From: Escherichia phage phiWec187
Sequence record: LC739536.1
Length of the DNA stretch: 64,000 nucleotides
Direction: 5' to 3' (one strand)
Positions within the stretch are counted from its first letter, which is position 1; every line of letters starts with the position of its first letter. Positions 876 to 26,377 of the stretch are shown piece after piece. Made by a program: the position numbers and the translations under genes. The notes beneath the pieces are model-generated. The model saw only the letters and a list, made by a program, of their open reading frames with translations, was not told the origin of the DNA and made no database searches.

Positions 876-1062
876 ACTTGGCTACACCATTAACTATAAT
901 GTGACCGCAAGACATAACTCCTAGCCAATGATCACCATTCTTTTTTAAACGTTTACCGTAAACATCACAGAAACCATTCTGTAATTCGGAAGCCTCATAA
1001 GAGGCTCCCTTTTCGAAAACGTCTTTGAAGTCAGAAATTAATCCAACACAAAGTAGTTTCAT
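844..1062 (-). CDS. hypothetical protein
   Basis: 72-aa ORF; start overlaps nrdB stop. Confidence 0.4.
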   Translation of the reverse strand: MKLLCVGLISDFKDVFEKGASYEASELQNGFCDVYGKRLKKNGDHWLGVMSCGHIIVNGVAKFEIIKGEKDD

Positions 1063-2147
1063 TAAAAGTCTAACTCCTCGTCATCACTTACATCTTTATT
1101 TGCTGAATTCAGTTTGTAAGCTGTAATTTGGATCTCCTGTGCTGCTGCTTGAATTTGATCTGGATTTAACCAAACATCCATCCAAGGCAGTGGACTTTTC
1201 TTCGGTGCACGGAATTTGTGTTTCATTTTCAGTCTGCGATAGATAGGCGCAGCATTGAAGTAAACCCAAAGTTTGAACAACTCTGCGTTACCACCAACGA
1301 TAATCCTTCCTTCACTAAACAGATAGTCACACCAATCTTCCTCTTGTCCAACTACCGTGTCAAGAATTTCTGTCAGAACGTAGATATTATCTTCGTATAC
1401 TTTTCTCCAGACAGGATCTTTCAGCAGTGCATCAATAATAGCATAATCCATTTTAACGTGCAATAGTTCATCCAACATAATTTTTTGAATGAGTTTAGCT
1501 GCACCTACAAACAGTTGCTGCTCTGCTAAGGCAAATGTTGCAGCAAAAGATGATATGAATTGAATGCCTTCCAGACCGATAAGTGCAATCATTCCTTTCA
1601 GAATCAGTAGACGAAGGTTATCATCCTTCTCAATCAGACCTAGAGCATACTTATGCCCTGCCTCTGCCAGATCACTCATTATCTCTTCAACTATACCCAT
1701 CCTCTGGAAGATTCTTTCGTTCTCCATAATCTGATCGATAACTTCATTTGGATTAGGGATACACTGACGAATAATTTCAGAATATGTCAAAGCGTGTAAA
1801 ACTTCCATTTCTGATTGCTTCATCATCATTGCACATGCTTCGTTGTTGCTTAAAAATGGTGCAAACAAAGTGATAATTGATTTAGCAAGTGAGTCATTTT
1901 CCCATTGGAAAGATAGGTTTTTGATCATAACATCATAGTTGCTTTTAGAACAAGCTACGAAATCTTTTCGTGTCTGATCTAAGTTTACTTCGTTTTCATC
2001 CCAATCTTGCTGTTTTTGTAGTTTGTACAGACGATGCATTTCTGGGTATGTTACATTAATAGAATCAAAAATACCTAACTGTTCTCCCAAAAATACAGGG
2101 TAGAAACCTTCTTTGTAAGTGTCGTTGTATAAATTAATCGCTGCCAT
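1062..2147 (-). CDS. nrdB: ribonucleotide reductase small subunit, class Ia
   Basis: 361 aa with R2-like length and acidic C-terminal tail ...DDEELDF; GGAGGA RBS upstream; adjacent to nrdA. Confidence 0.85.
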   Translation of the reverse strand: MAAINLYNDTYKEGFYPVFLGEQLGIFDSINVTYPEMHRLYKLQKQQDWDENEVNLDQTRKDFVACSKSNYDVMIKNLSFQWENDSLAKSIITLFAPFLSNNEACAMMMKQSEMEVLHALTYSEIIRQCIPNPNEVIDQIMENERIFQRMGIVEEIMSDLAEAGHKYALGLIEKDDNLRLLILKGMIALIGLEGIQFISSFAATFALAEQQLFVGAAKLIQKIMLDELLHVKMDYAIIDALLKDPVWRKVYEDNIYVLTEILDTVVGQEEDWCDYLFSEGRIIVGGNAELFKLWVYFNAAPIYRRLKMKHKFRAPKKSPLPWMDVWLNPDQIQAAAQEIQITAYKLNSANKDVSDDEELDF

Positions 2148-2510: not shown

Positions 2511-4775
2511 TTACATTTTACAGGCGCTACACCCCTCGTCTTCAGAATCTTCTTGAGCGAGTGAGGATGCCGATTTTGTTCTGCTATTTAGATAGTACAA
2601 AGATTTACCACCAAGTTTTGCAAACTGAAGGATATATTGCATTTCTGATTTAATGGATAAACGACCACCTTCCATCTTAGAGTAGTCAATCCACTTATCA
2701 CATGATGCACCTTGATCTAAGAATTTAGTCAACAGGCCATATGCTTCAGCCATATCTTTATCTGGTGTATCCCAAGCCGATTGGTAAATATCTTTTAGTT
2801 TATCGTAGTCTGGCACAATAAACAGAACATTACCCTTTTGGCTTTGTTTATAAACTATAGTATCACGTACAGGATACACAGAGTTAGTCGTATTACTTAC
2901 AAGACTACTGGACTCATTTGGAGCAATAGCTGCTAATACGCTATTTCGGATACCACCTTGTGCAATGATATCTTGTCGTAAACCTTCCCAATCCATTTTA
3001 AGTTTAAAATTGCCAATATCGTCTACAGCTTTAGCGTAGGTATCAATAGGCAACCATCCTTCAGGCCATTTGGTTTTATGCATCCATTCTGCATTACCTT
3101 TCTCTTTTGCCAAACGAAGAGAAGCTCTTGCTAACCAATAATAATGTCTTTCTGCTAATTCGTGAATTAGTTTTTTGCCGTAAGGATCTGAATAAGTAAC
3201 AAAATTACTTGCCAGATAATGTGCAAGGTTTGTAATACCTACACCGATAGACCTACGTGCTTTAGCAGTGATTTCGTTATGTTTAAACGGATACTGCATT
3301 GTTTCAATAACATTATCAATAGTCAGAACGGTATAATATGCAACATCTTCATATTCTTCTGGTGTAACACGACCAGCTACAATAGAAGACAGGAAGCATA
3401 ATGCCAATTCTTGATCTTCTGTATTCTCACCTGTGAAAAGATCAGTCATATTGTGAAATGCTTTCGTAGGTAAGAAAATTTCTTGGCACAAGTTTGACTG
3501 GTAAATAACATCCTTAAACGGAGTATGCTTATTAGCATTATCCGCAAAGAACATATAAATACGTCCTGTCTCTGCTCTTTGTGTAATAATTTCTGCCAGA
3601 AGATCTCGTGCTTTTACAAACTTCTTCTTAATTCGTTTGCGACTAACTTTTTCATATACTTCTTCAAACTCTTCCTCGCTTTTATAAAGCGCCTCATAGA
3701 GTTCTGGTGCTTCGTCATAACTGACTAGCATCCAATCTTTACCTTTTGCTGCACGGCGCAGGAAAGCATTGTTTACTACAATAGAGTAATCAAGTTTATC
3801 TACTCGTTTTTCACTAACAGTAGTTGGGTTTTTCAAACGTACCAGATCTTCAAAATCAGGTTCTAGTATTGTAAACGTTACTGTTGCACTTCCACCACGA
3901 CTTGCTTGTTTTGATGCTCCAACACTTGTCTCCATCCATTTCAGATATGGTAAAAGACCACCGTGAACGATACGGTTGTTCTTAACACCTTGTCCTGTGG
4001 CACGGGTTTGAAGGTTAACACCAATACCTGCATTATTCAATGTATATTCATGCGCAAGATAGTTAGCAATTGCTAAAGATTCTGCTGTATCGTCTGCTCT
4101 AAACAGACAACAAGAAGCACTACCTTTAATCTTAGTACGCAAAGTTGTTAAATAAGGCGATGGTAAATTAATCTTAAGATCACTTACGTAGGTATATAGA
4201 CGTTTAATGTCTTCTACTCTGCGGTCTTTTGGTTGGATTTCCATTACCTTCATTGCTACACCAATGAATAAAAACTGTGGTGATTCAAAAACAACATCAT
4301 TGATCGCATCTTTCACAAGATACTTATCAACCATCTGGCGCAGTACGGAATAACCATAAGTTAGGTTTTTATCGTGATTGACAATCTTACCAATCTCAAT
4401 AATTTCTTCTTCTGTATAATCCATTTTCCCCCAATAGCCTTTACTTACAGACATATTGTAGAAATCCAGGAGGGAGGGGATATTGTGATATCCCCCATGA
4501 GCCTGTTTATAGATCATACCAAGAAGTAACCGACCTGCCATATCACTATATGCCTGATCTTTCTTATCAATACATGCTGCTATCATAGCTTTATGTAAAT
4601 CACGAGTAGGCACACCGTCGTAACAACGTTTAACAGCTTCGAGTTCGATTTCAGACCAATTTAATTTACCAGCAGCAAACTCTGACCATTTACGAAGTTT
4701 TTCTGGATTAAATTCTTCTTTCTTGCCGTTTGTTTTTGTTACATAACGGATAGATTTGCTTAGATACTGAGTCAC
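2511..4775 (-). CDS. nrdA: ribonucleotide reductase large subunit, class Ia
   Basis: 754 aa; N-terminal ATP-cone-like segment; NxCxE-like NLCQEI; C-terminal cysteine pair CSACKM. Confidence 0.9.
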   Translation of the reverse strand: MTQYLSKSIRYVTKTNGKKEEFNPEKLRKWSEFAAGKLNWSEIELEAVKRCYDGVPTRDLHKAMIAACIDKKDQAYSDMAGRLLLGMIYKQAHGGYHNIPSLLDFYNMSVSKGYWGKMDYTEEEIIEIGKIVNHDKNLTYGYSVLRQMVDKYLVKDAINDVVFESPQFLFIGVAMKVMEIQPKDRRVEDIKRLYTYVSDLKINLPSPYLTTLRTKIKGSASCCLFRADDTAESLAIANYLAHEYTLNNAGIGVNLQTRATGQGVKNNRIVHGGLLPYLKWMETSVGASKQASRGGSATVTFTILEPDFEDLVRLKNPTTVSEKRVDKLDYSIVVNNAFLRRAAKGKDWMLVSYDEAPELYEALYKSEEEFEEVYEKVSRKRIKKKFVKARDLLAEIITQRAETGRIYMFFADNANKHTPFKDVIYQSNLCQEIFLPTKAFHNMTDLFTGENTEDQELALCFLSSIVAGRVTPEEYEDVAYYTVLTIDNVIETMQYPFKHNEITAKARRSIGVGITNLAHYLASNFVTYSDPYGKKLIHELAERHYYWLARASLRLAKEKGNAEWMHKTKWPEGWLPIDTYAKAVDDIGNFKLKMDWEGLRQDIIAQGGIRNSVLAAIAPNESSSLVSNTTNSVYPVRDTIVYKQSQKGNVLFIVPDYDKLKDIYQSAWDTPDKDMAEAYGLLTKFLDQGASCDKWIDYSKMEGGRLSIKSEMQYILQFAKLGGKSLYYLNSRTKSASSLAQEDSEDEGCSACKM

Positions 4776-4786
4776 TTCCTCTCCTA

Positions 4787-5047
4787 TTAATTGTGCATGT
4801 TTAGAACATCTACATCATAACCGCCACGCATCTCGTTATATAAGCCATTTGCGTATAGAAAACCTTCAAAATGATCTATACCTTCAAAACCTTTTGCCTT
4901 TGCTTTGCGGTCTGCTTCTTGTCTTTTTGGTGATAATCTTTTAGATGTATCAAGGATAACTGTTACATTGCAACCTAATGTTTCATCAAAATAGACTTCA
5001 ATTTCACAGCCTTCATATTTATTACTTTCTGTCATTTGGCCTCTCAA
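4787..5047 (-). CDS. hypothetical protein
   Basis: 86-aa ORF downstream of nrdA. Confidence 0.45.
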   Translation of the reverse strand: MRGQMTESNKYEGCEIEVYFDETLGCNVTVILDTSKRLSPKRQEADRKAKAKGFEGIDHFEGFLYANGLYNEMRGGYDVDVLNMHN

Positions 5048-5458
5048 TTAGAATTCAGAATCATCATCTCGTGATGGATCATGTTCATTTCCGAAGTCTT
5101 CCATTTTGATATGAGAGCTACCCCAACCTGTAAAATCTTCTTCTCCAAAGTGCAAAATATCTACACCTTGATAGATTCGCTTATATTTATAGTCTTGTCG
5201 AACTGGGAAAGTATACAATGTAGTATTTGCAAACACCACACGTCGATTGTTGTTACTACGAATATTAACACCACGTTCTACTGTATAATGTCCATCGGTA
5301 GACATACCAAGCATTACTAATGCTGCTCGCAATGTGGTGTTATGATACTCGTGAGGAATTTTTCCTCCATGCTTTTTAGCCATTTCTTTCCAGATCGGTG
5401 TAGCCTTAATGGTAGACATACTTACGGTCGCCCAAATGGTTGTATTAATTAGTGACAT
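5048..5458 (-). CDS. hypothetical protein with acidic C-terminal tail
   Basis: 136 aa ending ...SRDDDSEF; own promoter and RBS upstream. Confidence 0.45.
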   Translation of the reverse strand: MSLINTTIWATVSMSTIKATPIWKEMAKKHGGKIPHEYHNTTLRAALVMLGMSTDGHYTVERGVNIRSNNNRRVVFANTTLYTFPVRQDYKYKRIYQGVDILHFGEEDFTGWGSSHIKMEDFGNEHDPSRDDDSEF

Positions 5459-19979: not shown

Positions 19980-20008
19980 TTGACTTTAGATCTATCTGTA
20001 TGTAGAGT
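19980..20008 (+). promoter_or_regulatory. sigma70-like promoter for Prs-like gene
   Basis: TTGACT-N17-TAGAGT with AT-rich UP-like tract 19920-19979. Confidence 0.5.
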
Positions 20009-20047
20009 AGAGAACATAAAGTCCTAACTCAACTAAGGAGATAAACA

Positions 20048-20941
20048 ATGAAAGTTAGTATTCTACATGGTGTTGACTGTTATGTTACTGATGTAGACGT
20101 TAAAGTCTTTACATTCTCTGGTGGAGAACAACATGTTCAACTAGATACGAATCTATCAGGTTTCAATCATGCTACAGACAGAATCTTACTCTCTTTAGAA
20201 GTAAGATCTGCTAAAGACTTGATGACTTTGGTTATGACTAAGAATGCATTGGACAATATGCTATATCATAAACCATATTGTGTTGATTTACTCATGCTGT
20301 ATGTACCGTATGCACGACAAGACAGAGTGTGTGAGCCTGGGGAAGCATTCGGAGTTAAAGCCTTTGCTTCTATAATTAATTCATTAAATTTCTCACGTGT
20401 TATCGTTGCTGATCCACATAGTGATGTTACTCCAGCAGTGTTTGACAGACTCTGTGTAATACCTCAAGAAGAGATTGCTTACGAAACTTTAAAGTGGAAG
20501 TTACGTATGGAGAATTTTGCTCTTGTTAGTCCTGATGGTGGTGCTCTTAAGAAAATATTTAAATTATCTAAGAAAATGTCTTTAGATGTGTTCTGTGCAG
20601 AGAAGGTTAGAGATACTGCAACAGGTGCTATTGTTCGTACAGACATTTCTGTACAGGATTTCAATAAGCGTAACCTGATGATCGTAGATGATATCTGTGA
20701 CGGCGGTAGAACTTTTATTGAATTGGCTAAAGTGCTACGTGCTCGTAACGCAGGTAAGATTGAGTTATATGTTACACACGGTATCTTTTCTAAAGGTCTT
20801 AAAGAGTTAAGTGAGCACTTTGACTGCATTCATTCTCTTAATGTGTGGGAAGATAACATCCAAGAAGATTCCGGTGTTCTTGTTAAGAATCAGTCAGATT
20901 TGCAACAACAAATTGTATCTCCATACGTGTGGAATTTTTAA
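20048..20941 (+). CDS. prs: ribose-phosphate pyrophosphokinase family protein (Prs-like)
   Basis: PYARQDR, DPHSD, VSPDGG and DDICDGGRT signatures; consensus promoter and AAGGAG RBS upstream. Confidence 0.8.
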   Translation: MKVSILHGVDCYVTDVDVKVFTFSGGEQHVQLDTNLSGFNHATDRILLSLEVRSAKDLMTLVMTKNALDNMLYHKPYCVDLLMLYVPYARQDRVCEPGEAFGVKAFASIINSLNFSRVIVADPHSDVTPAVFDRLCVIPQEEIAYETLKWKLRMENFALVSPDGGALKKIFKLSKKMSLDVFCAEKVRDTATGAIVRTDISVQDFNKRNLMIVDDICDGGRTFIELAKVLRARNAGKIELYVTHGIFSKGLKELSEHFDCIHSLNVWEDNIQEDSGVLVKNQSDLQQQIVSPYVWNF

Positions 20942-20951
20942 ATAATAAGTG

Positions 20952-20980
20952 TTGACAATAGGGAGTATGCTTAGTAAGAT
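20952..20980 (+). promoter_or_regulatory. sigma70-like promoter for NadV-like gene
   Basis: TTGACA-N17-TAAGAT; -10 lies inside inverted repeat GGGAGTAT...ATACTCCC. Confidence 0.5.
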
Positions 20981-21012
20981 ACTCCCACACTAACAAACAA
21001 GGAGACATAACT

Positions 21013-22746
21013 ATGAATATTTTTGCACCTTTTGCTACTGATTGGTATAAACCTGGTCACAAGCAGATGTACAACCAAAATACAAAACTCATTTTCTCTA
21101 ATTTAACTCCTCGTAATGATAAAAACTTTGCACACTATGCAGATCGTGAAGCACGTGGTGTAATTGTTTTAGGTATTCGTCGAGCAGTTACTGATGCTCT
21201 TGTAACTATGTGGGATGGCTTCTTTAAAATGTCTCGTAGTGCAGCAGTAAATAAATTTTATCGTATGTCTAAGAATGCATTAGGTGCTTCTGCTCCTTCT
21301 GCTGAATGTTGGGGAGAATTGCACGATTTAGGTTATCTTCCGCTAGAAGTTCGATCTCTGCCAGAAGGTGTTTTGTGTCCTATTGGTGTTCCTGTGTTTA
21401 CTGTGCATAACACTTTAGAAAAATTCTTTTGGTTAACTAACTATGTGGAAACACTCTTGTCAGATGAAACTTGGAAGACAATGACTAATGCCACAGCAGC
21501 TTTTCAGTATAAGCGTATCGCTATGGCGTATGCGATGGCAACGTGTGATAACATTGATCACGTTAATTTCCAGTGTCATGACTTTAGCCTACGTGGTTTA
21601 AGCAATATCGAAGATGGTTATAAGAGTGGTATCGCTCATTTGGCATCTTTCACAGGTACAGATAATATTCTGGCTATTGAAACTGTGCATGATTACTATG
21701 GTATTGATTATGATCAGTTTGTTGCAGGTTCTATTCCGGCAACAGAACATTCAGTAGCAACGACTAACATTGGAGCTATTGTTGAAGATCTGAAGAAACA
21801 TTTCCCACATCTTAAAGATGATGTTGATGGGCTTCGTTATGTAGCAGAGAAAGAGTTTCTTCGCCGCTATATTGAAGAAATTGTTCCAGAAGGTTTTTGT
21901 TCATATGTAGCAGATTCTTATGATTACTGGGCTGTCTTGACTCGCATTCTGGTAGAATTGAAAGAGTCCATTATGTCACGAAATGGTCGTCTTGTTATTC
22001 GTCCAGACTCAGGAGATCCGGTTAAAGTTGTTGCAGGATACAATGTTGAATCTTTTGATAACTATGAAGACCTTTTAAATAATGGTATTGCTACAGCCAC
22101 TGAAGTAGTACATTTGGCTGATGTTAATAAGTATTACAATGTTCTTCAGGATTGCAGTGTTGCTGATTGTATTGATGAAACTTATGAGATTCCTTATTGT
22201 GAAGCAGTAGGTTCTATTCAAATCCTTTGGGAAGTGTTTGGTGGTACTATCAACCGAAAAGGCTACAAGGTTCTTGATCAGCACATCGGTATGATTTATG
22301 GTGATTCTATTACTGTTGAACGAGAACACGAGATCTTACGCCGACTGAAGAAGAAAGGTTTTGCAGCTTCCAATATTGTATTTGGTGTTGGTAGTTATAC
22401 TTATCAGTTCAATACACGAGATACTTTTGGTTTTGCTGTTAAAGCAACAGGTAGTATCATCGGTGAACACGAAATTTTGGTAAGTAAGGAGCCTAAAACT
22501 GATCCTGGTAAACGCTCTGCAAAAGGTTTTATTAAGGTTGTTAAGGATACAAATGGTAAACTTTCTCTTGTGGATAATCTTTCTTTTAAAGATATCCAAG
22601 ATGAAGACAATGAGTTAAAAGTTATCTTCAGGGATGGTACGGTTATTACACCACAAGTAGAAGGACGTGATGAAACATTTACTGATATCCGTAACCGTGT
22701 TGATGTAGAGGTTCTTCGTACTATGGGAACCATCCAGGTTGACTAA
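21013..22746 (+). CDS. nadV: nicotinamide phosphoribosyltransferase family protein (NadV/NAMPT-like)
   Basis: 577 aa; N-terminus ATDWYKPGHKQMY is NAMPT-like; own promoter. Confidence 0.75.
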   Translation: MNIFAPFATDWYKPGHKQMYNQNTKLIFSNLTPRNDKNFAHYADREARGVIVLGIRRAVTDALVTMWDGFFKMSRSAAVNKFYRMSKNALGASAPSAECWGELHDLGYLPLEVRSLPEGVLCPIGVPVFTVHNTLEKFFWLTNYVETLLSDETWKTMTNATAAFQYKRIAMAYAMATCDNIDHVNFQCHDFSLRGLSNIEDGYKSGIAHLASFTGTDNILAIETVHDYYGIDYDQFVAGSIPATEHSVATTNIGAIVEDLKKHFPHLKDDVDGLRYVAEKEFLRRYIEEIVPEGFCSYVADSYDYWAVLTRILVELKESIMSRNGRLVIRPDSGDPVKVVAGYNVESFDNYEDLLNNGIATATEVVHLADVNKYYNVLQDCSVADCIDETYEIPYCEAVGSIQILWEVFGGTINRKGYKVLDQHIGMIYGDSITVEREHEILRRLKKKGFAASNIVFGVGSYTYQFNTRDTFGFAVKATGSIIGEHEILVSKEPKTDPGKRSAKGFIKVVKDTNGKLSLVDNLSFKDIQDEDNELKVIFRDGTVITPQVEGRDETFTDIRNRVDVEVLRTMGTIQVD

Positions 22747-22817
22747 ATAAAAACTTCGTGATAAGATTAAGGTAAGGAGAGCCTGCAACTGCCCTGGATG
22801 GGCTTCACGAAGGATTT

Positions 22818-23039
22818 ATGAAACAACATAATTTTTATTTTCGTTGCCGAGCCTGTAACAGACACTTGACTAATCACTCCCGTAGAGACAGGAATGGTAA
22901 TATTCAAGAGTCGGATCTATGCTCGATTTGTACAAGTTTGGCATTCGACGACAGTCCCGAAAGGGTTTATCAACATCAAAGTGTAACTGATCTTCTTCTA
23001 AATTACACAGCACCAGAGGAGGAATTAGATTTCACATAA
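22818..23039 (+). CDS. zinc-ribbon protein with acidic C-terminal tail
   Basis: CRACNRH...CSICTS pair; ends PEEELDFT, similar to the NrdB tail. Confidence 0.5.
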   Translation: MKQHNFYFRCRACNRHLTNHSRRDRNGNIQESDLCSICTSLAFDDSPERVYQHQSVTDLLLNYTAPEEELDFT

Positions 23040-23052
23040 TTAAGGAAACAGT

Positions 23053-23166
23053 ATGTCTACAGAAATTATTTTTGGCTTATCTGTTTTTATTGCTATTGTA
23101 TCTTTTGTATGCGGTTATACACTATTTTTATTGCTGTTGTATCTTTGGTATGCTGCTCTACACTAG
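23053..23166 (+). CDS. small hydrophobic peptide (about 37 aa)
   Basis: Not in track; AAGGAA RBS then ATG; hand translation is one transmembrane-like segment. Confidence 0.25.
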   Translation: MSTEIIFGLSVFIAIVSFVCGYTLFLLLLYLWYAALH

Positions 23167-23200
23167 GTTACAGATCAAGAAAAAATATTGTAAAAACTAG

Positions 23201-23230
23201 TTGACAACATAGCTAGTTATTTGCTAAGAT
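23201..23230 (+). promoter_or_regulatory. sigma70-like promoter
   Basis: TTGACA-N18-TAAGAT. Confidence 0.45.
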
Positions 23231-23260
23231 AAGCCCAAGTTAAACAAAAAGGAGAAAACT

Positions 23261-23527
23261 ATGACAGAACGTACTTATGGTAAAGAATTGATTGAGAAGC
23301 ACGTATTGATTGATAATAAAGGTGGAGCAATCTTTATTTTTGAACCTGAATCAGTTCTTACTGAAAACGAAAATGGTAGCGTTAGCCTTAAAACAGAAAG
23401 TTTGGTAATTGACTTCCTTGCTCTTCTGGATGAAATGGGGCTTCCTCACGAAGAAGAAGCAGCTATTGCTTTGATTGCAGTTCTTCTGGAGAAACGCGAA
23501 GCTGGTGAAATGACCCAGTATGCTTAA
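23261..23527 (+). CDS. hypothetical protein
   Basis: 88-aa ORF with promoter TTGACA-N18-TAAGAT upstream. Confidence 0.5.
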   Translation: MTERTYGKELIEKHVLIDNKGGAIFIFEPESVLTENENGSVSLKTESLVIDFLALLDEMGLPHEEEAAIALIAVLLEKREAGEMTQYA

Positions 23528-23534
23528 TATTCAA

Positions 23535-23610
23535 GGTTCCATAGCTCACTGACGAGAGCGCACACCTCATAAGTGTCGAGGGCAGGGATTGTAACCCTGG
23601 GGAACCACCA
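23535..23610 (+). tRNA. tRNA-Met or Ile2 (anticodon CAT)
   Basis: Hand-folded cloverleaf; anticodon loop CTCATAA; encoded CCA. Confidence 0.55.
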
Positions 23611-23641
23611 TTTAAAAGGAGGTGCTATGCATCTCCTATAT

Positions 23642-23727
23642 GCAAGTGTGGTGGAATTGGTGATACACATTGTGCTTAAAACGCAACGCTTAAATGCTTG
23701 AGGGTTCGAATCCCTCCACTTGCACCA
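23642..23727 (+). tRNA. tRNA-Leu (anticodon TAA), long variable arm
   Basis: 7-bp acceptor, loop CTTAAAA, T-loop GGTTCGAATCC, encoded CCA. Confidence 0.6.
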
Positions 23728-23743
23728 AAACCTAAAAATATCT

Positions 23744-23772
23744 TGACATTTACTTAGTTTTTTGTTATAGTT
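23744..23772 (+). promoter_or_regulatory. sigma70-like promoter within tRNA cluster
   Basis: TTGACA-N17-TATAGT, 10 nt before tRNA at 23783. Confidence 0.5.
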
Positions 23773-23782
23773 ACTATGAAAA

Positions 23783-23864
23783 CGGGGTGTATCTCACCTG
23801 ACTTCTAATCAGGCGTTAACCGAGTAATTGGAGTATGCAGGTTCGAATCCTGTCACCCCGGCCA
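23783..23864 (+). tRNA. atypical tRNA-like gene (possible anticodon TCT)
   Basis: Perfect acceptor and canonical T-arm; stem-loop CCTGA-CTTCTAA-TCAGG; D-arm region too short. Confidence 0.4.
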
Positions 23865-23882
23865 AAAAGTTTTAAAAACTAC

Positions 23883-23911
23883 TTGACAAGCAAGATAGTT
23901 TTATGTTAGAT
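23883..23911 (+). promoter_or_regulatory. sigma70-like promoter within tRNA cluster
   Basis: TTGACA-N17-TTAGAT upstream of tRNA-Ser at 23928. Confidence 0.45.
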
Positions 23912-23927
23912 TTAAAGTATGGTAACA

Positions 23928-24017
23928 GGAAGGTAGGGCGCAGCGGTGCGCAACCAGGTTTGAACCCTGGCCCATTGTAGCGATACGGTGATGGTTCGAC
24001 TCCATTATCTTCCTCCA
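23928..24017 (+). tRNA. tRNA-Ser (anticodon TGA)
   Basis: Anticodon loop TTTGAAC, long variable arm, encoded CCA. Confidence 0.6.
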
Positions 24018-24196
24018 AATTCTCTTAGGAGCTTTATGAATTATAAAACTATTGGACAGGTTGTTACCTGAGTTAAGATTGTAAATAATAAAGTTGTTTA
24101 TGAGTATTCTAATCTTCAACAATCCGAAGATGGTAAGAATATTCGTATGGTAAAAACAGAACAAAAAGATTCCGGTTGTTTTGAATAATTAAAAAC

Positions 24197-24282
24197 GGTA
24201 GATTGGTGAAATGGTAGCCACAACAGTTTGCTAAACTGTCGTCGGAAACGGCGTGTAGGTTCAAGTCCTACATCTACCGCCA
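24197..24282 (+). tRNA. tRNA-Ser (anticodon GCT)
   Basis: Anticodon loop TTGCTAA, variable-arm hairpin, T-loop GGTTCAAGTCC, CCA. Confidence 0.6.
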
Positions 24283-24416
24283 AGTTATCTTTAATGTAGC
24301 TTGTAATCTTACTTTAGCAGAGTAAACTTTCGGCAGATGGTGGCAGCCATTTTACCGATACCCCAATACTTCATAGCTAAGTGCCGCAAACACTGGCTAT
24401 TTTAAAGATAATTTAT

Positions 24417-24492
24417 ACATCGTTAGCTTAGTTGGTAGAGCAAGGTGCTTTTAACTCCAAGGTCGAAGGTTCGAATCCTTCACGATGTACCA
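24417..24492 (+). tRNA. tRNA-Lys (anticodon TTT), tentative
   Basis: D-arm GCTTAGTTGGTAGAGC; loop CTTTTAA with one stem mismatch; CCA. Confidence 0.5.
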
Positions 24493-24497
24493 AACAC

Positions 24498-24584
24498 GTA
24501 GGTATCGCATAGCGGCAATTGCTGGAGACTGTAAATCTCCTGCCCTTCGGGGCTTCGTTGGTTCGAGTCCAACTACCTGCACCA
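24498..24584 (+). tRNA. tRNA-Tyr (anticodon GTA)
   Basis: Anticodon arm GGAGA-CTGTAAA-TCTCC; variable-arm hairpin; CCA. Confidence 0.65.
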
Positions 24585-24591
24585 AATTAAA

Positions 24592-24676
24592 GATGGATTG
24601 GCCTAGTGGTTGGGCGACGGACTGTTAATCCGTGAACGAAAGTTCTAGCAAGGTTCAAATCCTTGATCCATCGCCA
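24592..24676 (+). tRNA. tRNA with anticodon GTT (Asn) and unusually long variable arm
   Basis: Anticodon arm ACGGA-CTGTTAA-TCCGT; 15-nt variable hairpin; T-loop GGTTCAAATCC; CCA. Confidence 0.5.
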
Positions 24677-24680
24677 AATA

Positions 24681-24749
24681 GTGCTTGTAGAGTTAATAGA
24701 AACCTCTAGAATTTTCTAGAATTGTAGGTATCAAATCCTACCAAGCAAA
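24681..24749 (+). ncRNA. degenerate tRNA-like element
   Basis: 6-bp acceptor-like pairing and T-arm-like hairpin but anticodon loop of 6 or 8 nt and no CCA. Confidence 0.25.
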
Positions 24750-24755
24750 TATTTT

Positions 24756-24830
24756 GCTCCTATCGTATAACGGCTATTACGGTTGCCTTGTAAGCAACTT
24801 ATCAGGGTTCGAGTCCTTGTGGGAGCACCA
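24756..24830 (+). tRNA. tRNA-Thr (anticodon TGT)
   Basis: Anticodon arm GTTGC-CTTGTAA-GCAAC; T-loop GGGTTCGAGTCC; CCA. Confidence 0.65.
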
Positions 24831-24852
24831 ATTTAACTCTAAAGGAGTGTAT

Positions 24853-25176
24853 GTGACAGAAAAAGAGTTAGAGAAATATTTTAATATCAATGTTTTCGAT
24901 GGCTTTGATGATATTGAAGATGTTGAAAGATATTATGAAGTAGAGTTAGATAAGGATAACATTGTAATTCTTTCTGCCACTTACGATTGTGCATATTATG
25001 AAGGCGAATCTCACGTTTATTTCTATGATATGAAAACATCTTTGTTTTATGAAGTACACGCATATCATTGTTCTTGCTATGGCTTAGAAGGTCAGTGGGA
25101 ACCTGAAGAAATAGGTGATTTGGACTTTACTATTGCATATCTAAACAGACGTGGTTCATCTACTATTTTAAAATAA
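24853..25176 (+). CDS. hypothetical protein inside tRNA cluster (GTG start)
   Basis: Track start 24754 overlaps tRNA-Thr; AAGGAG at 24842-24847 then GTG at 24853. Confidence 0.4.
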   Translation: MTEKELEKYFNINVFDGFDDIEDVERYYEVELDKDNIVILSATYDCAYYEGESHVYFYDMKTSLFYEVHAYHCSCYGLEGQWEPEEIGDLDFTIAYLNRRGSSTILK

Positions 25177-25190
25177 ATATCAAAAGCCTC

Positions 25191-25220
25191 TTGACAAAGG
25201 GGCTAATAATATGTTAGAGT
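25191..25220 (+). promoter_or_regulatory. sigma70-like promoter within tRNA cluster
   Basis: TTGACA-N17/18-TAGAGT upstream of tRNA-Gly at 25232. Confidence 0.45.
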
Positions 25221-25231
25221 AATATTGTTAA

Positions 25232-25306
25232 GCGGGTATAGTGTTAATGGTAGCATATGAGGTTTCCACCCTCCAGGTGCAGGTTCAAGTCCTGTTACTC
25301 GCTCCA
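25232..25306 (+). tRNA. tRNA-Gly (anticodon TCC)
   Basis: Anticodon loop TTTCCAC; T-loop GGTTCAAGTCC; CCA. Confidence 0.6.
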
Positions 25307-25737
25307 AGATTATTTAAATGGAATCGCTAGAGAAAATTTCTCTTTTCGCTCATGGTTTTCTCCTTCAAACTCTAGCGGTTCTTTTTAAGTGATTTTTTAG
25401 TTTATTGGAGATTCACTTCCTTAGTGTGAGCTAAAATCGAGGAGCCATCGAACTGTCTGATTAATGATTTGCGAATCATTATAGTTTTAAGACCCCGGTA
25501 GTTTTATGGTGTACCTCTTGAATGTGAATGATGACGGGTTTATGGTTATCCTGGTCGTTAAATATCCAAAAACCTATGTTCCCCTTGAGGGCTTGCGCAG
25601 GTAATGCCAATAAGTCCTGCATTTTCATTTAAAAGAGAATTTATAATGGAAAAAGATGAACTTAAGTATGCTAAGCCTCTGGCTTCTGCTGCACGAAAAG
25701 CAGTTCGTCACTTTGTGGTAACACTGAAGTAATTTAT

Positions 25738-25812
25738 TGGAGATTAGCCTAGTGGGAAGGCAACGGCCTTTGAAGTCGTGATGACTAGGTTCGATTCCTA
25801 GATCTCCAGCCA
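25738..25812 (+). tRNA. tRNA-Gln (anticodon TTG)
   Basis: Anticodon arm ACGGC-CTTTGAA-GTCGT; T-loop GGTTCGATTCC; CCA. Confidence 0.65.
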
Positions 25813-25819
25813 AGATTTA

Positions 25820-25895
25820 CAGTGCGTAGCGCAGTTGGTAGCGTGGGAGCCTTGGACGCTTCAGGTCGCAGGTTCGAGTCCTGCCGCACTGACCA
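25820..25895 (+). tRNA. tRNA-Pro (anticodon TGG)
   Basis: C1:G72 acceptor; anticodon loop CTTGGAC; CCA. Confidence 0.65.
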
Positions 25896-25900
25896 AATTT

Positions 25901-25975
25901 GCAGAGATAGCTGAGACGGATTAGTGCTACCCTGAAAAGGTAGAAAGGATGGATCGTTACCATCTCTCTGCACCA
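25901..25975 (+). tRNA. tRNA-Phe (anticodon GAA)
   Basis: Anticodon arm CTACC-CTGAAAA-GGTAG; CCA. Confidence 0.65.
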
Positions 25976-26052
25976 AATAACACCATCCAAGGAGTAGACT
26001 TGGTTAACTGTCAATAGCACATTGAGGCTTCTTACAGTGGTGTACTTATTAT

Positions 26053-26137
26053 GGCTAAGTGGTGGAATGGTATACACGATACGCTTAGAACGTATTGCCC
26101 CAAGGGATTGTGAGTTCGAGTCTCACCTTAGCTACCA
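26053..26137 (+). tRNA. tRNA-Leu (anticodon TAG), long variable arm
   Basis: Anticodon arm ATACG-CTTAGAA-CGTAT; T-loop GAGTTCGAGTCTC; CCA. Confidence 0.65.
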
Positions 26138-26152
26138 AATTATTACAGATTG

Positions 26153-26231
26153 TGCGGGATAGAGGAGTCTGGTCGTCCTCGCCAGTTTCATATGCTGGAG
26201 ATCATCGGTTCGAATCCGATTTCCGCCTCCA
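26153..26231 (+). tRNA. tRNA with anticodon CAT (Met or Ile2), mismatched first acceptor pair
   Basis: Anticodon arm CCAGT-TTCATAT-GCTGG; T-loop GGTTCGAATCC; CCA; 1:72 pair U-C. Confidence 0.5.
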
Positions 26232-26289
26232 ATAAATACCTCCCTTCTGGTGTAATGATTAAATTACATTGACACTTCAAGGAACTCAT

Positions 26290-26372
26290 AGCCGGGTAGA
26301 TTTAAAAGAGTATGGTACTCAATATGGCTCCAAACCATAGATCAGGGGGTTCGATTCCTCACCTTGCTGCCA
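26290..26372 (+). tRNA. atypical tRNA-like gene, possible tRNA-Trp (anticodon CCA)
   Basis: Anticodon arm TATGG-CTCCAAA-CCATA; T-loop GGGTTCGATTCC; CCA; D region too long. Confidence 0.35.
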
Positions 26373-26377
26373 ATTAT

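Follow-up and report, generated by a model that had tools for sequence, protein, structure and literature searches.

In this study, we examined a 64,000-nucleotide (nt) stretch of the Escherichia phage phiWec187 genome (LC739536.1; here called the window) and, within it, a small plus-strand gene for a zinc-finger protein of 73 amino acids (aa), here named the mini-protein. Over positions 20000 to 26000, the window shares 98.9% identity with Escherichia phage phi92, a Justusliebigvirus of the Stephanstirmvirinae. The gene lies downstream of a Prs-like and a Nampt-like gene and is followed by an open reading frame (ORF) for a strongly hydrophobic peptide, an ORF of 88 aa and an array of tRNA genes (Table 1). 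Its upstream region harbors a sigma70-type promoter-like site. The spacer of this site holds the 5' strand of a predicted RNA helix, the 3' strand of which covers the Shine-Dalgarno (SD) sequence of the mini-protein gene.

Judged by its conservation, the mini-protein gene is a real gene of a phi92-like (Justusliebigvirus) coliphage, because its product matches the phrog_37033 profile hidden Markov model (E 1.7e-36; residues 3 to 69 against profile positions 14 to 80 of 83), homologues were found by tblastn in 142 phage records, and synonymous codon differences (17 to 28) clearly exceed non-synonymous ones (6 to 15) in a 55-codon core. The reading frame with its two CxxC pairs and the terminal sequence PEEELDFT had been described correctly in the first-pass annotation, and an AAGGA sequence lies 4 nt ahead of the ATG. 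The protein is 100% conserved in ~49 Justusliebigvirus records and 98.6% identical to its phi92 counterpart. Homologues of ~75% identity are present in Phapecoctavirus, Klebsiella phages and Citrobacter phage Tr1, and metagenomic homologues reach down to ~29%. Profile searches of 1.84 billion representatives and then of a 5.8-billion-sequence set yielded ~25 distinct small relatives of 61 to 115 aa, and narrower alignments enlarged the locus set by a few loci. The mini-protein is a direct member of the phrog_37033 or phAPEC8_00141-type hypothetical proteins, with 75 to 100% identity to annotated ones. No curated cutoff was reached in Pfam, NCBIfam or PADLOC (best Pfam match RecR_ZnF, 17.4 bits versus 22), scans of NCBIfam and PADLOC gave nothing meaningful, and PHROGs gave no functional family. 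Phapecoctavirus records annotate an N-terminally extended form of 83 aa. This upstream in-frame start was rejected: three lineages (the window, KP13-26 and Tr1) have no ATG there, the SD spacing would be zero, and indels of non-triplet length occur. The phi92 reference does not annotate the ORF. If the transcript-selective occlusion proposed below is true, it would also offer annotators a rule for the true start codon of this locus and for the overlooked ORF.

The promoter-like site belongs to a pattern that is enriched in the window. The sequence TTGACN-N15-19-TAAGAT occurs 4 times versus 0.33 expected, and three of these sites, at 20952, 22739 and 23201, directly precede consecutive plus-strand genes. 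More promoter-like sites with TTGAC[AT] are found ahead of the Prs-like gene and within the tRNA array. The -35 hexamer, spacing and -10 hexamer of the mini-protein promoter stand at an equal distance from the ATG in KP13-26, phiWec190, ZCKP1, Tr1 and a metagenomic relative, and the full set (-35, spacer of 17 to 18 nt, -10) is conserved in every enterobacterial lineage examined. Six Stephanstirmvirinae lineages share it, Phapecoctavirus keeps it despite a different upstream gene, and in Klebsiella phage FBKp34 an equivalent promoter was annotated by the depositors. The transcript from this promoter is predicted to start near 22774, at the conserved sequence AAGGAGAG. The AGGAGA in this sequence is invariant in all six Stephanstirmvirinae leaders and also present in locus L028, with no conserved start codon after it; for AAGGAGAG, a role as a standby site for ribosomes, as a remnant SD or as a site of cleavage is conceivable. 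Literature searches returned nothing relevant on phi92 promoters or transcripts, and a full-text search found no transcriptome data for this phage group.

A 7-bp inverted repeat (CTTCGTG at 22754-22760 and CACGAAG at 22806-22812) had been noted ahead of the gene and read as a hairpin that sequesters the ribosome-binding site (RBS). Both copies are present and complementary, and the repeat proved to be larger, with arms of 15 nt (22747-22761 and 22805-22819) that are 87% complementary. The 5' arm reads CTTCGTGA, and the 3' arm covers the SD sequence GAAGGA (22809-22814) plus the AU of the AUG. RNA containing both arms folds with an 8-bp core and a 5-bp outer stem at a minimum free energy of -23.2 to -23.6 kcal/mol (z = -3.4 to -3.6), and only 0 to 1 of 200 shuffled sequences fold as stably; the RNA from the predicted start site (~22774) gives -10.6 (z = -0.1), with the SD largely free. 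For an inner hairpin within the leader, counterparts with ACCC/GGGU and CCCC/GGGG were seen by eye in relatives, at a place where the alignment is gap-shifted.

The helix is also supported by comparison of the lineages. In an alignment of six sequences, 90.5% of the cells of a 14-pair helix are paired, and three pairs are changed on both sides, as in the replacement of G-C by A-U in Tr1. The covariation score of 0.262, compared with 0.157 in shuffles, was attained by 1 of 500 shuffles, and when the partners were slid by one to three columns as a control, pairing was only 37 to 54%. Several pairs are G-U, and they are G-U only in the plus-strand sense, as expected of a plus-strand RNA. Conservation is not called for in a promoter spacer, yet the spacers of all compared lineages carry CCTTCGTG, the complement of the SD region. 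In the six lineages and in FBKp34 as well, the 5' arm is enclosed by the predicted -35 and -10 hexamers. We conclude from this pattern of pairing and compensatory change that the leader helix is real. Among 15 promoter-to-ORF pairs in the window, this leader alone has a complement of at least 8 nt to its own initiation region, one terminator aside (null probability ~0.007). In the leader of locus L009, only a 6-bp match was found, which is not significant (z = 0.3), and an Rfam scan of 22600-23600 at E values up to 10 returned only noise.

An independent instance of the helix, and the strongest evidence for the leader design, comes from FBKp34, whose mini-protein is ~41 to 47% identical to that of the window. 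Within the promoter annotated by its depositors, TTGACATAAAATCTCACTCTGGTGTATAGT, the stretch CATAAAATCTCAC is a perfect complement of GTGAGATTTTATG at the SD and start codon. At the RNA level, CAUAAAAUCUCAC from the promoter spacer and GUGAGAUUUUAUG at the SD and AUG form a 13-bp helix of a sequence unrelated to that in the window. Folding of the FBKp34 RNA yields -23.7 kcal/mol (z = -5.2) when the arm is included and -2.7 (z = 0.35) when it is left out. The claim of an RBS-sequestering hairpin was thus supported and extended, both by the compensatory changes and by its recurrence with unrelated sequence.

Two other candidates were rejected. The leader hairpin is not an intrinsic terminator: a scan of 22400-23700 turned up no terminator-like site, hence none between the Nampt-like and mini-protein genes, and no U-run follows the stem. 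A second apparent pairing of a promoter with an SD region, at 31752, is an 18-bp terminator hairpin (31761-31800, between a 522-aa gene and the next ORF) that overlaps a promoter and does not occlude an RBS; the ORF after the 522-aa gene probably starts at ATG 31817 (SD GAGGAA) rather than at 31805.

The location of the 5' arm in the promoter spacer has a direct consequence: transcripts from this promoter should lack the arm and leave the RBS open. Based on the promoter consensus, transcripts started near 22774 would be without the 5' strand, and their SD and AUG would be accessible. Read-through RNA from the Prs-like and Nampt-like genes would carry both arms, form the 8+5 bp helix over the SD and AUG and not be translated for the mini-protein. 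Expression of the mini-protein would in this way be tied to its own early promoter, and the translational block by the leader is probably confined to RNA that enters from the upstream genes. The suggestion of regulated translation therefore holds with regard to the hairpin, but the first-pass annotation had overlooked that the 5' arm lies inside the promoter, so that the helix is expected on read-through RNA only. In lineages without the anti-SD arm (loci L018, L020 and L034), a GC-rich hairpin stands directly upstream of the mini-protein promoter, that of L034 being a canonical terminator, GGGGAAGCCCGAAAGGGCTTCTTTTT. Either device would insulate the gene from upstream transcription, in keeping with selection for such insulation.

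A comparable arrangement has been described for the T4 genes e, soc, 49 and I-TevI, whose own promoters contain or adjoin the sequence for the 5' strand of an RBS-sequestering helix (PMC3014915). There, as proposed here, the SD and AUG are paired on long read-in transcripts, the gene's own promoter overlaps the 5' strand, and the helix is conserved among related phages. The T4 genes encode lysis, capsid and nuclease functions and have late promoters, whereas the window has a zinc-finger family gene with a sigma70-type, early-looking promoter. The helix of the window also differs in being a multibranch 8+5 bp structure with a 43-nt interior, here known from sequence alone. If our reading is true, the T4 design in which a promoter deletes the anti-SD strand from its own transcripts would extend to sigma70-type early promoters and to a therapeutically used phage group (phi92, phAPEC8 and Klebsiella relatives).

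Taken as a whole, we favor, with a confidence slightly above even, a small early C4-finger protein whose leader blocks translation on read-through RNA only and whose similarity to another phage protein in its tail, discussed below, is coincidental. Several points weigh against this. In L026, a KP13-26-like contig, the core stem contains an A-C mismatch that is not compensated, the covariation count covers six related sequences only, and the promoter is a prediction from its consensus. Because the upstream stop codon is so near the core of the 5' arm in every lineage, the helix might be opened in part by ribosomes that terminate there, and the outcome would then be coupling instead of silencing. 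The function of the protein is a guess, its structure model is of moderate confidence (predicted local distance difference test [pLDDT] 70.7), and fold and profile searches with the mini-protein returned nothing informative. Finally, 16 of 30 family members have an aromatic residue among their last three, so that the C-terminal end may be a real docking motif.

The main rival to transcript-selective occlusion is translational coupling or a constitutive attenuator. Here, a ribosome that ends at the upstream TAA (22744-22746) would melt the 5' arm and transiently free the RBS, so that the mini-protein would be translated from polycistronic RNA depending on translation of the upstream ORF, and the promoter-like site would be weak or irrelevant. 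The geometry is suitable, as 8 to 14 nt separate the upstream stop codon from the 5'-arm core in the window, KP13-26, ZCKP1, Tr1 and FBKp34, the outer stem begins 1 nt past this codon, and the transcription start is known from prediction only. However, the promoter is conserved even where the upstream gene differs (Phapecoctavirus) or a terminator takes the place of the anti-SD arm, and from general knowledge of ribosome footprints the 8-bp core would be largely beyond the reach of a terminating ribosome. We consider coupling unlikely.

Table 1. Features of the mini-protein locus, comparison genes in the window and upstream hairpins at related loci
Feature	Position	Strand	Remarks
Prs-like gene	20048-20941	+	297 aa; TTGAC-type promoter-like site at 19980
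Promoter-like site of the Nampt-like gene	20952-20980	+	With the Nampt-like gene, predicted origin of read-through RNA with both arms
Nampt-like gene	21013-22746	+	577 aa
Sigma70-type promoter-like site	22739-22767	+	-35 TTGACT (22739-22744), 17-nt spacer, TGn and -10 TAAGAT (22762-22767)
5' arm	22747-22761	+	Outer AUAAA (22747-22751), core CUUCGUGA (22754-22761); within the promoter spacer, upstream of the predicted transcription start
Conserved AAGGAGAG	22774-22781	+	Just past the -10 hexamer, where the gene's own transcript is predicted to begin; ~38 nt ahead of the AUG
Inner hairpin GCCC-UGGAU-GGGC	22791-22803	+	Within the leader
3' arm	22805-22819	+	UCACGAAG (22805-22812) and UUUAU (22815-22819)
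73-aa coding sequence (mini-protein)	22818-23039	+	phrog_37033 member
C4 zinc finger	22845-22931	+	Cys10, Cys13, Cys35 and Cys38; 21-residue spacer
Conserved post-finger motif AFDDSPERVYQHQSVTD	22941-22991	+	Residues 42-58; family consensus AFDxSxxRxYxHQxxTD
Acidic tail PEEELDFT	23013-23036	+	Residues 66-73
37-aa strongly hydrophobic ORF (phi92 gp109)	23053-23166	+	Own AAGGAA SD; directly 3' of the mini-protein gene
Array of 15 tRNA genes	23535-26453	+	First tRNA 496 nt past the mini-protein stop codon
Terminator/promoter overlap	31752-31806	+	18-bp hairpin, then UUUUU, -18.6 kcal/mol, z = -4.75; promoter-like TTGACA-17-TAGACT
NrdB (class Ia)	1062-2147	-	Last seven codons (1065-1085) encode DDEELDF; comparator, outside the unit
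NrdA	2511-4775	Opposite to the mini-protein gene	Far left of the mini-protein gene
136-aa protein with tail DDDSEF	5048-5458	-	phrog_15711
GC-rich hairpin ahead of promoter	L018, ~2880-2910		
GC-rich hairpin ahead of promoter	L020, ~2890-2915		
GC-rich hairpin ahead of promoter	L034, ~4880-4910		

The protein itself was compared at the level of sequence and predicted structure. In alignments of 17 to 19 family members, the only invariant columns are the four Cys of the two CxxC knuckles, and the family consensus reads FYFRCxACxxxL...KNGxIxESDLCSxC...AFDxSxxRxYxHQxxTD. An AlphaFold2 (AF2) model from 6 sequences reached pLDDT 59 with a helix at residues 47-63. The model from 17 sequences, to which the moderate score above belongs, has short strands and helices at 36-42, starting from the second CxxC, and at 54-63. 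Both models put helices into the conserved post-finger motif (residues 42-58) and give the tail low pLDDT. Foldseek searches of the PDB and BFVD gave nothing significant, the top PDB matches being GATA, LIM and RING fingers with E values of at least 1.5, and a sequence profile search of the PDB gave a marginal match to the second finger of CRP LIM domains (E 0.0015 to 0.005). These weak matches and the model from 17 sequences tentatively point to a C4 finger of the LIM/GATA-like treble-clef type, which is a statement on fold class only and says nothing on function. The initial designation as a zinc ribbon is right in its two CxxC pairs; as a fold, the ribbon can be no more than tentative. Like LIM and GATA C4 fingers, the mini-protein has the spacing CxxC-x21-CxxC and a modeled helix from the second knuckle; it differs in being a single finger in a phage protein, and all matches are below the significance required for homology. 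In phage Mu, a hairpin that occludes the RBS on the mom mRNA is opened by Com, a small C4 zinc protein. The mini-protein resembles Com in size, in the first knuckle (RC-x-x-CN-x-x-L) and in being encoded near an RBS-occluding hairpin. It differs in its second knuckle and C-terminal half, and the Pfam family Com does not match it even at E values up to 1.

In the most likely reading, the mini-protein would act early, in an accessory or take-over role, and bind a partner via its finger-plus-helix core, to which the acidic, often aromatic end may add non-specific docking or autoinhibition. A more specific role is suggested by its genomic setting. A same-strand tRNA array follows within 3.8 kb downstream, mostly within 1 kb, in 15 of 17 informative contexts, namely Justusliebigvirus, Phapecoctavirus, KP13-26-like phages, Tr1, FBKp34-like phages, two Otagovirus phages of Pseudomonas and several metagenomic phages, some of which look unrelated. 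The position upstream of tRNA arrays is kept in phages whose mini-proteins are as little as 29 to 35% identical, and at locus L008 the gene lies between two tRNA genes. The protein could hence serve the phage tRNA array by binding tRNA or pre-tRNA, by acting in maturation or by neutralizing a host defense that targets tRNA, such as one of the anticodon-nuclease type. The link to the array is independent of the Prs/Nampt gene pair, which is absent from Phapecoctavirus and Otagovirus. On the other hand, much of the synteny may be inherited, as ligase, PhoH and HslV-like genes are also shared nearby. Searches of Pfam and NCBIfam and with profiles revealed no recognizable RNA-binding or enzymatic domain, the protein is net acidic with just one or two conserved basic residues, and loci L009 and L022 show no tRNA within 3 to 6 kb. 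A literature search on zinc-finger proteins in phage tRNA clusters found nothing relevant. We rate a tRNA-related function as distinctly unlikely. An equally tentative standing is given to the wider proposal that the family is a previously unrecognized component of tRNA arrays, made only from an insulated early promoter and acting on phage tRNAs or tRNA-targeting immunity, with the acidic-aromatic C terminus as a docking motif. The gene sits between a pair of genes of the NAD+-reconstitution type and the tRNA array, in a kind of region where counter-defense functions tend to cluster. Its remaining interest lies mainly in the conserved insulation design and in the unexplained link to tRNA arrays.

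The acidic tail of the mini-protein was analyzed separately. Across the family, the region behind the finger has a net charge of -6 to -9 in 23 of 30 members, 27 of 30 have at least 2 acidic residues among the last eight, and an aromatic residue in the last three positions occurs more often than the roughly 25% expected from composition. Read from these sequences, the tail is a loosely conserved acidic and often aromatic end with no defined motif. It might still be a generic docking tail of the kind found in SSB (SSB-Ct), T7 gp2.5 and clamp-binding proteins, by which the finger would be recruited to, or compete at, a replication or repair protein. The charge and the frequency of late aromatics are in favor of this, as is the pattern of EEELDF, which is like that of the E. 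coli SSB tail, DDDIPF, a likeness to be taken as a lead only. Yet the aromatic residue is seldom terminal and is gone in phi92, Phapecoctavirus, KP13-26-like phages and Otagovirus, and the Phe, where SSB would have it at the end, is penultimate or absent. The domain is a zinc finger rather than an oligonucleotide/oligosaccharide-binding (OB) fold, replication genes are not linked, and no partner can be named. A docking tail of this type appears quite improbable.

The first-pass annotation had further proposed that the tail mimics that of the phage NrdB and modulates ribonucleotide reductase (RNR). In this scenario, EEELDF(T) would dock in the beta-tail pocket of the phage NrdA, compete with NrdB and modulate the class Ia RNR. 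The idea is reasonable because C-terminal peptides of the R2 subunit are established competitive inhibitors of RNRs, such as YAGAVVNDL of herpes simplex virus and the mammalian N-Ac-FTLDADF (PMC9221315). The tails of NrdB and of the 5048-5458 protein are present as described. The mini-protein tail is short, acidic and hydrophobic like RNR small-subunit peptides and has the exact 5-mer EELDF in common with the cognate NrdB, C-terminal in both. Only 3 of 82 window proteins, the 5048-5458 protein among them, combine an acidic tail with an aromatic residue among the final three.

The tails of both proteins were then set side by side, genome by genome. The pairs (mini-protein/NrdB) are PEEELDFT/DDEELDF in the window, GDDEIDTN/DDEEFDF in KP13-26, EDEQTID/DDMEFDF in phiWec190, EDEQLTD/DDEELDF in ZCKP1, SDEEADFN/EDEELEW in Tr1 and KSEDFD/TPDFLSKLKID in FBKp34; phi92 has EEELDLT, and its NrdB is outside the compared locus. 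While NrdB of five close lineages consistently has an acidic run, L/F, D/E and a terminal F or W, the F of the mini-protein, where present, is never terminal (ends DFT, DLT, DTN, TID, LTD and DFN), and even the 98.6% identical phi92 protein ends in ELDLT. There is no covariation: ZCKP1 shares the NrdB tail of the window with a different mini-protein tail, and in FBKp34 the mini-protein end remains acidic and aromatic alongside a wholly different NrdB tail. No column past residue 58 is invariant among six close homologues, in contrast to most of the core. In all Stephanstirmvirinae loci, nrdAB is on the other strand at a distance of ~20 kb, and the conserved neighbors are tRNA arrays, not RNR genes. 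In 1000 composition-preserving shuffles of the 82 window proteins, 72 (7.2%) had at least one protein pair sharing a 5-mer within the last 10 residues, which makes the exact EELDF match statistically weak; the first-pass annotation had itself cautioned that the likeness may be due to chance. Mimicry of NrdB would have been the most striking interpretation. It is not supported and must be called highly improbable, because the tail is not conserved in homologues, an outcome that the first-pass annotation had itself named as a refutation, does not covary with NrdB and belongs to a zinc-finger protein unlinked to nrdAB, with a motif set off the true C terminus. The shared EELDF looks like a coincidence of two acidic tails.

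Some further observations concern the surroundings of the gene. By description, the Prs-like and Nampt-like genes resemble the pair (Adps and Namat) of the NARP1 NAD+-reconstitution counter-defense pathway, a two-gene pathway shown in bioRxiv 10.1101/2024.02.11.579819 and described as a two-gene operon in Felixounavirus (Bas63) and SpbetaL1. The mini-protein as a third component of such a system was rejected, given that Phapecoctavirus and Otagovirus keep its gene without the pair; the absence of Felixounavirus among the tblastn matches to the mini-protein also disfavors the idea. At the promoter-like site of the Nampt-like gene, an inverted repeat, GGGAGT/ACTCCC (20961-20986, plus strand), flanks the -10 hexamer. 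Downstream, the metagenomic relatives L016 and L017 have a 36-aa ORF in place of the 37-aa hydrophobic ORF, which in the window is separated from the tRNA array by the 88-aa ORF. The interior of the array contains promoter-like sites with perfect TTGACA -35 hexamers at 23743, 23883 and 25191. In KP13-26-like Klebsiella phages (L003, 29757-29831; L026, 7198-7272), ARAGORN predicted a tRNA with the anticodon CTA, an amber reader labeled Pyl, which may be a suppressor tRNA. An ORF similar in size to that encoding the 5048-5458 protein adjoins NrdA in every Stephanstirmvirinae locus examined. Finally, four records labeled "Campylobacter phage" with C. jejuni as the host (MG065645, MG065639, MG065656 and MG065689) are 98.6% identical to the window over 6 kb and encode an identical mini-protein; their host label looks doubtful.

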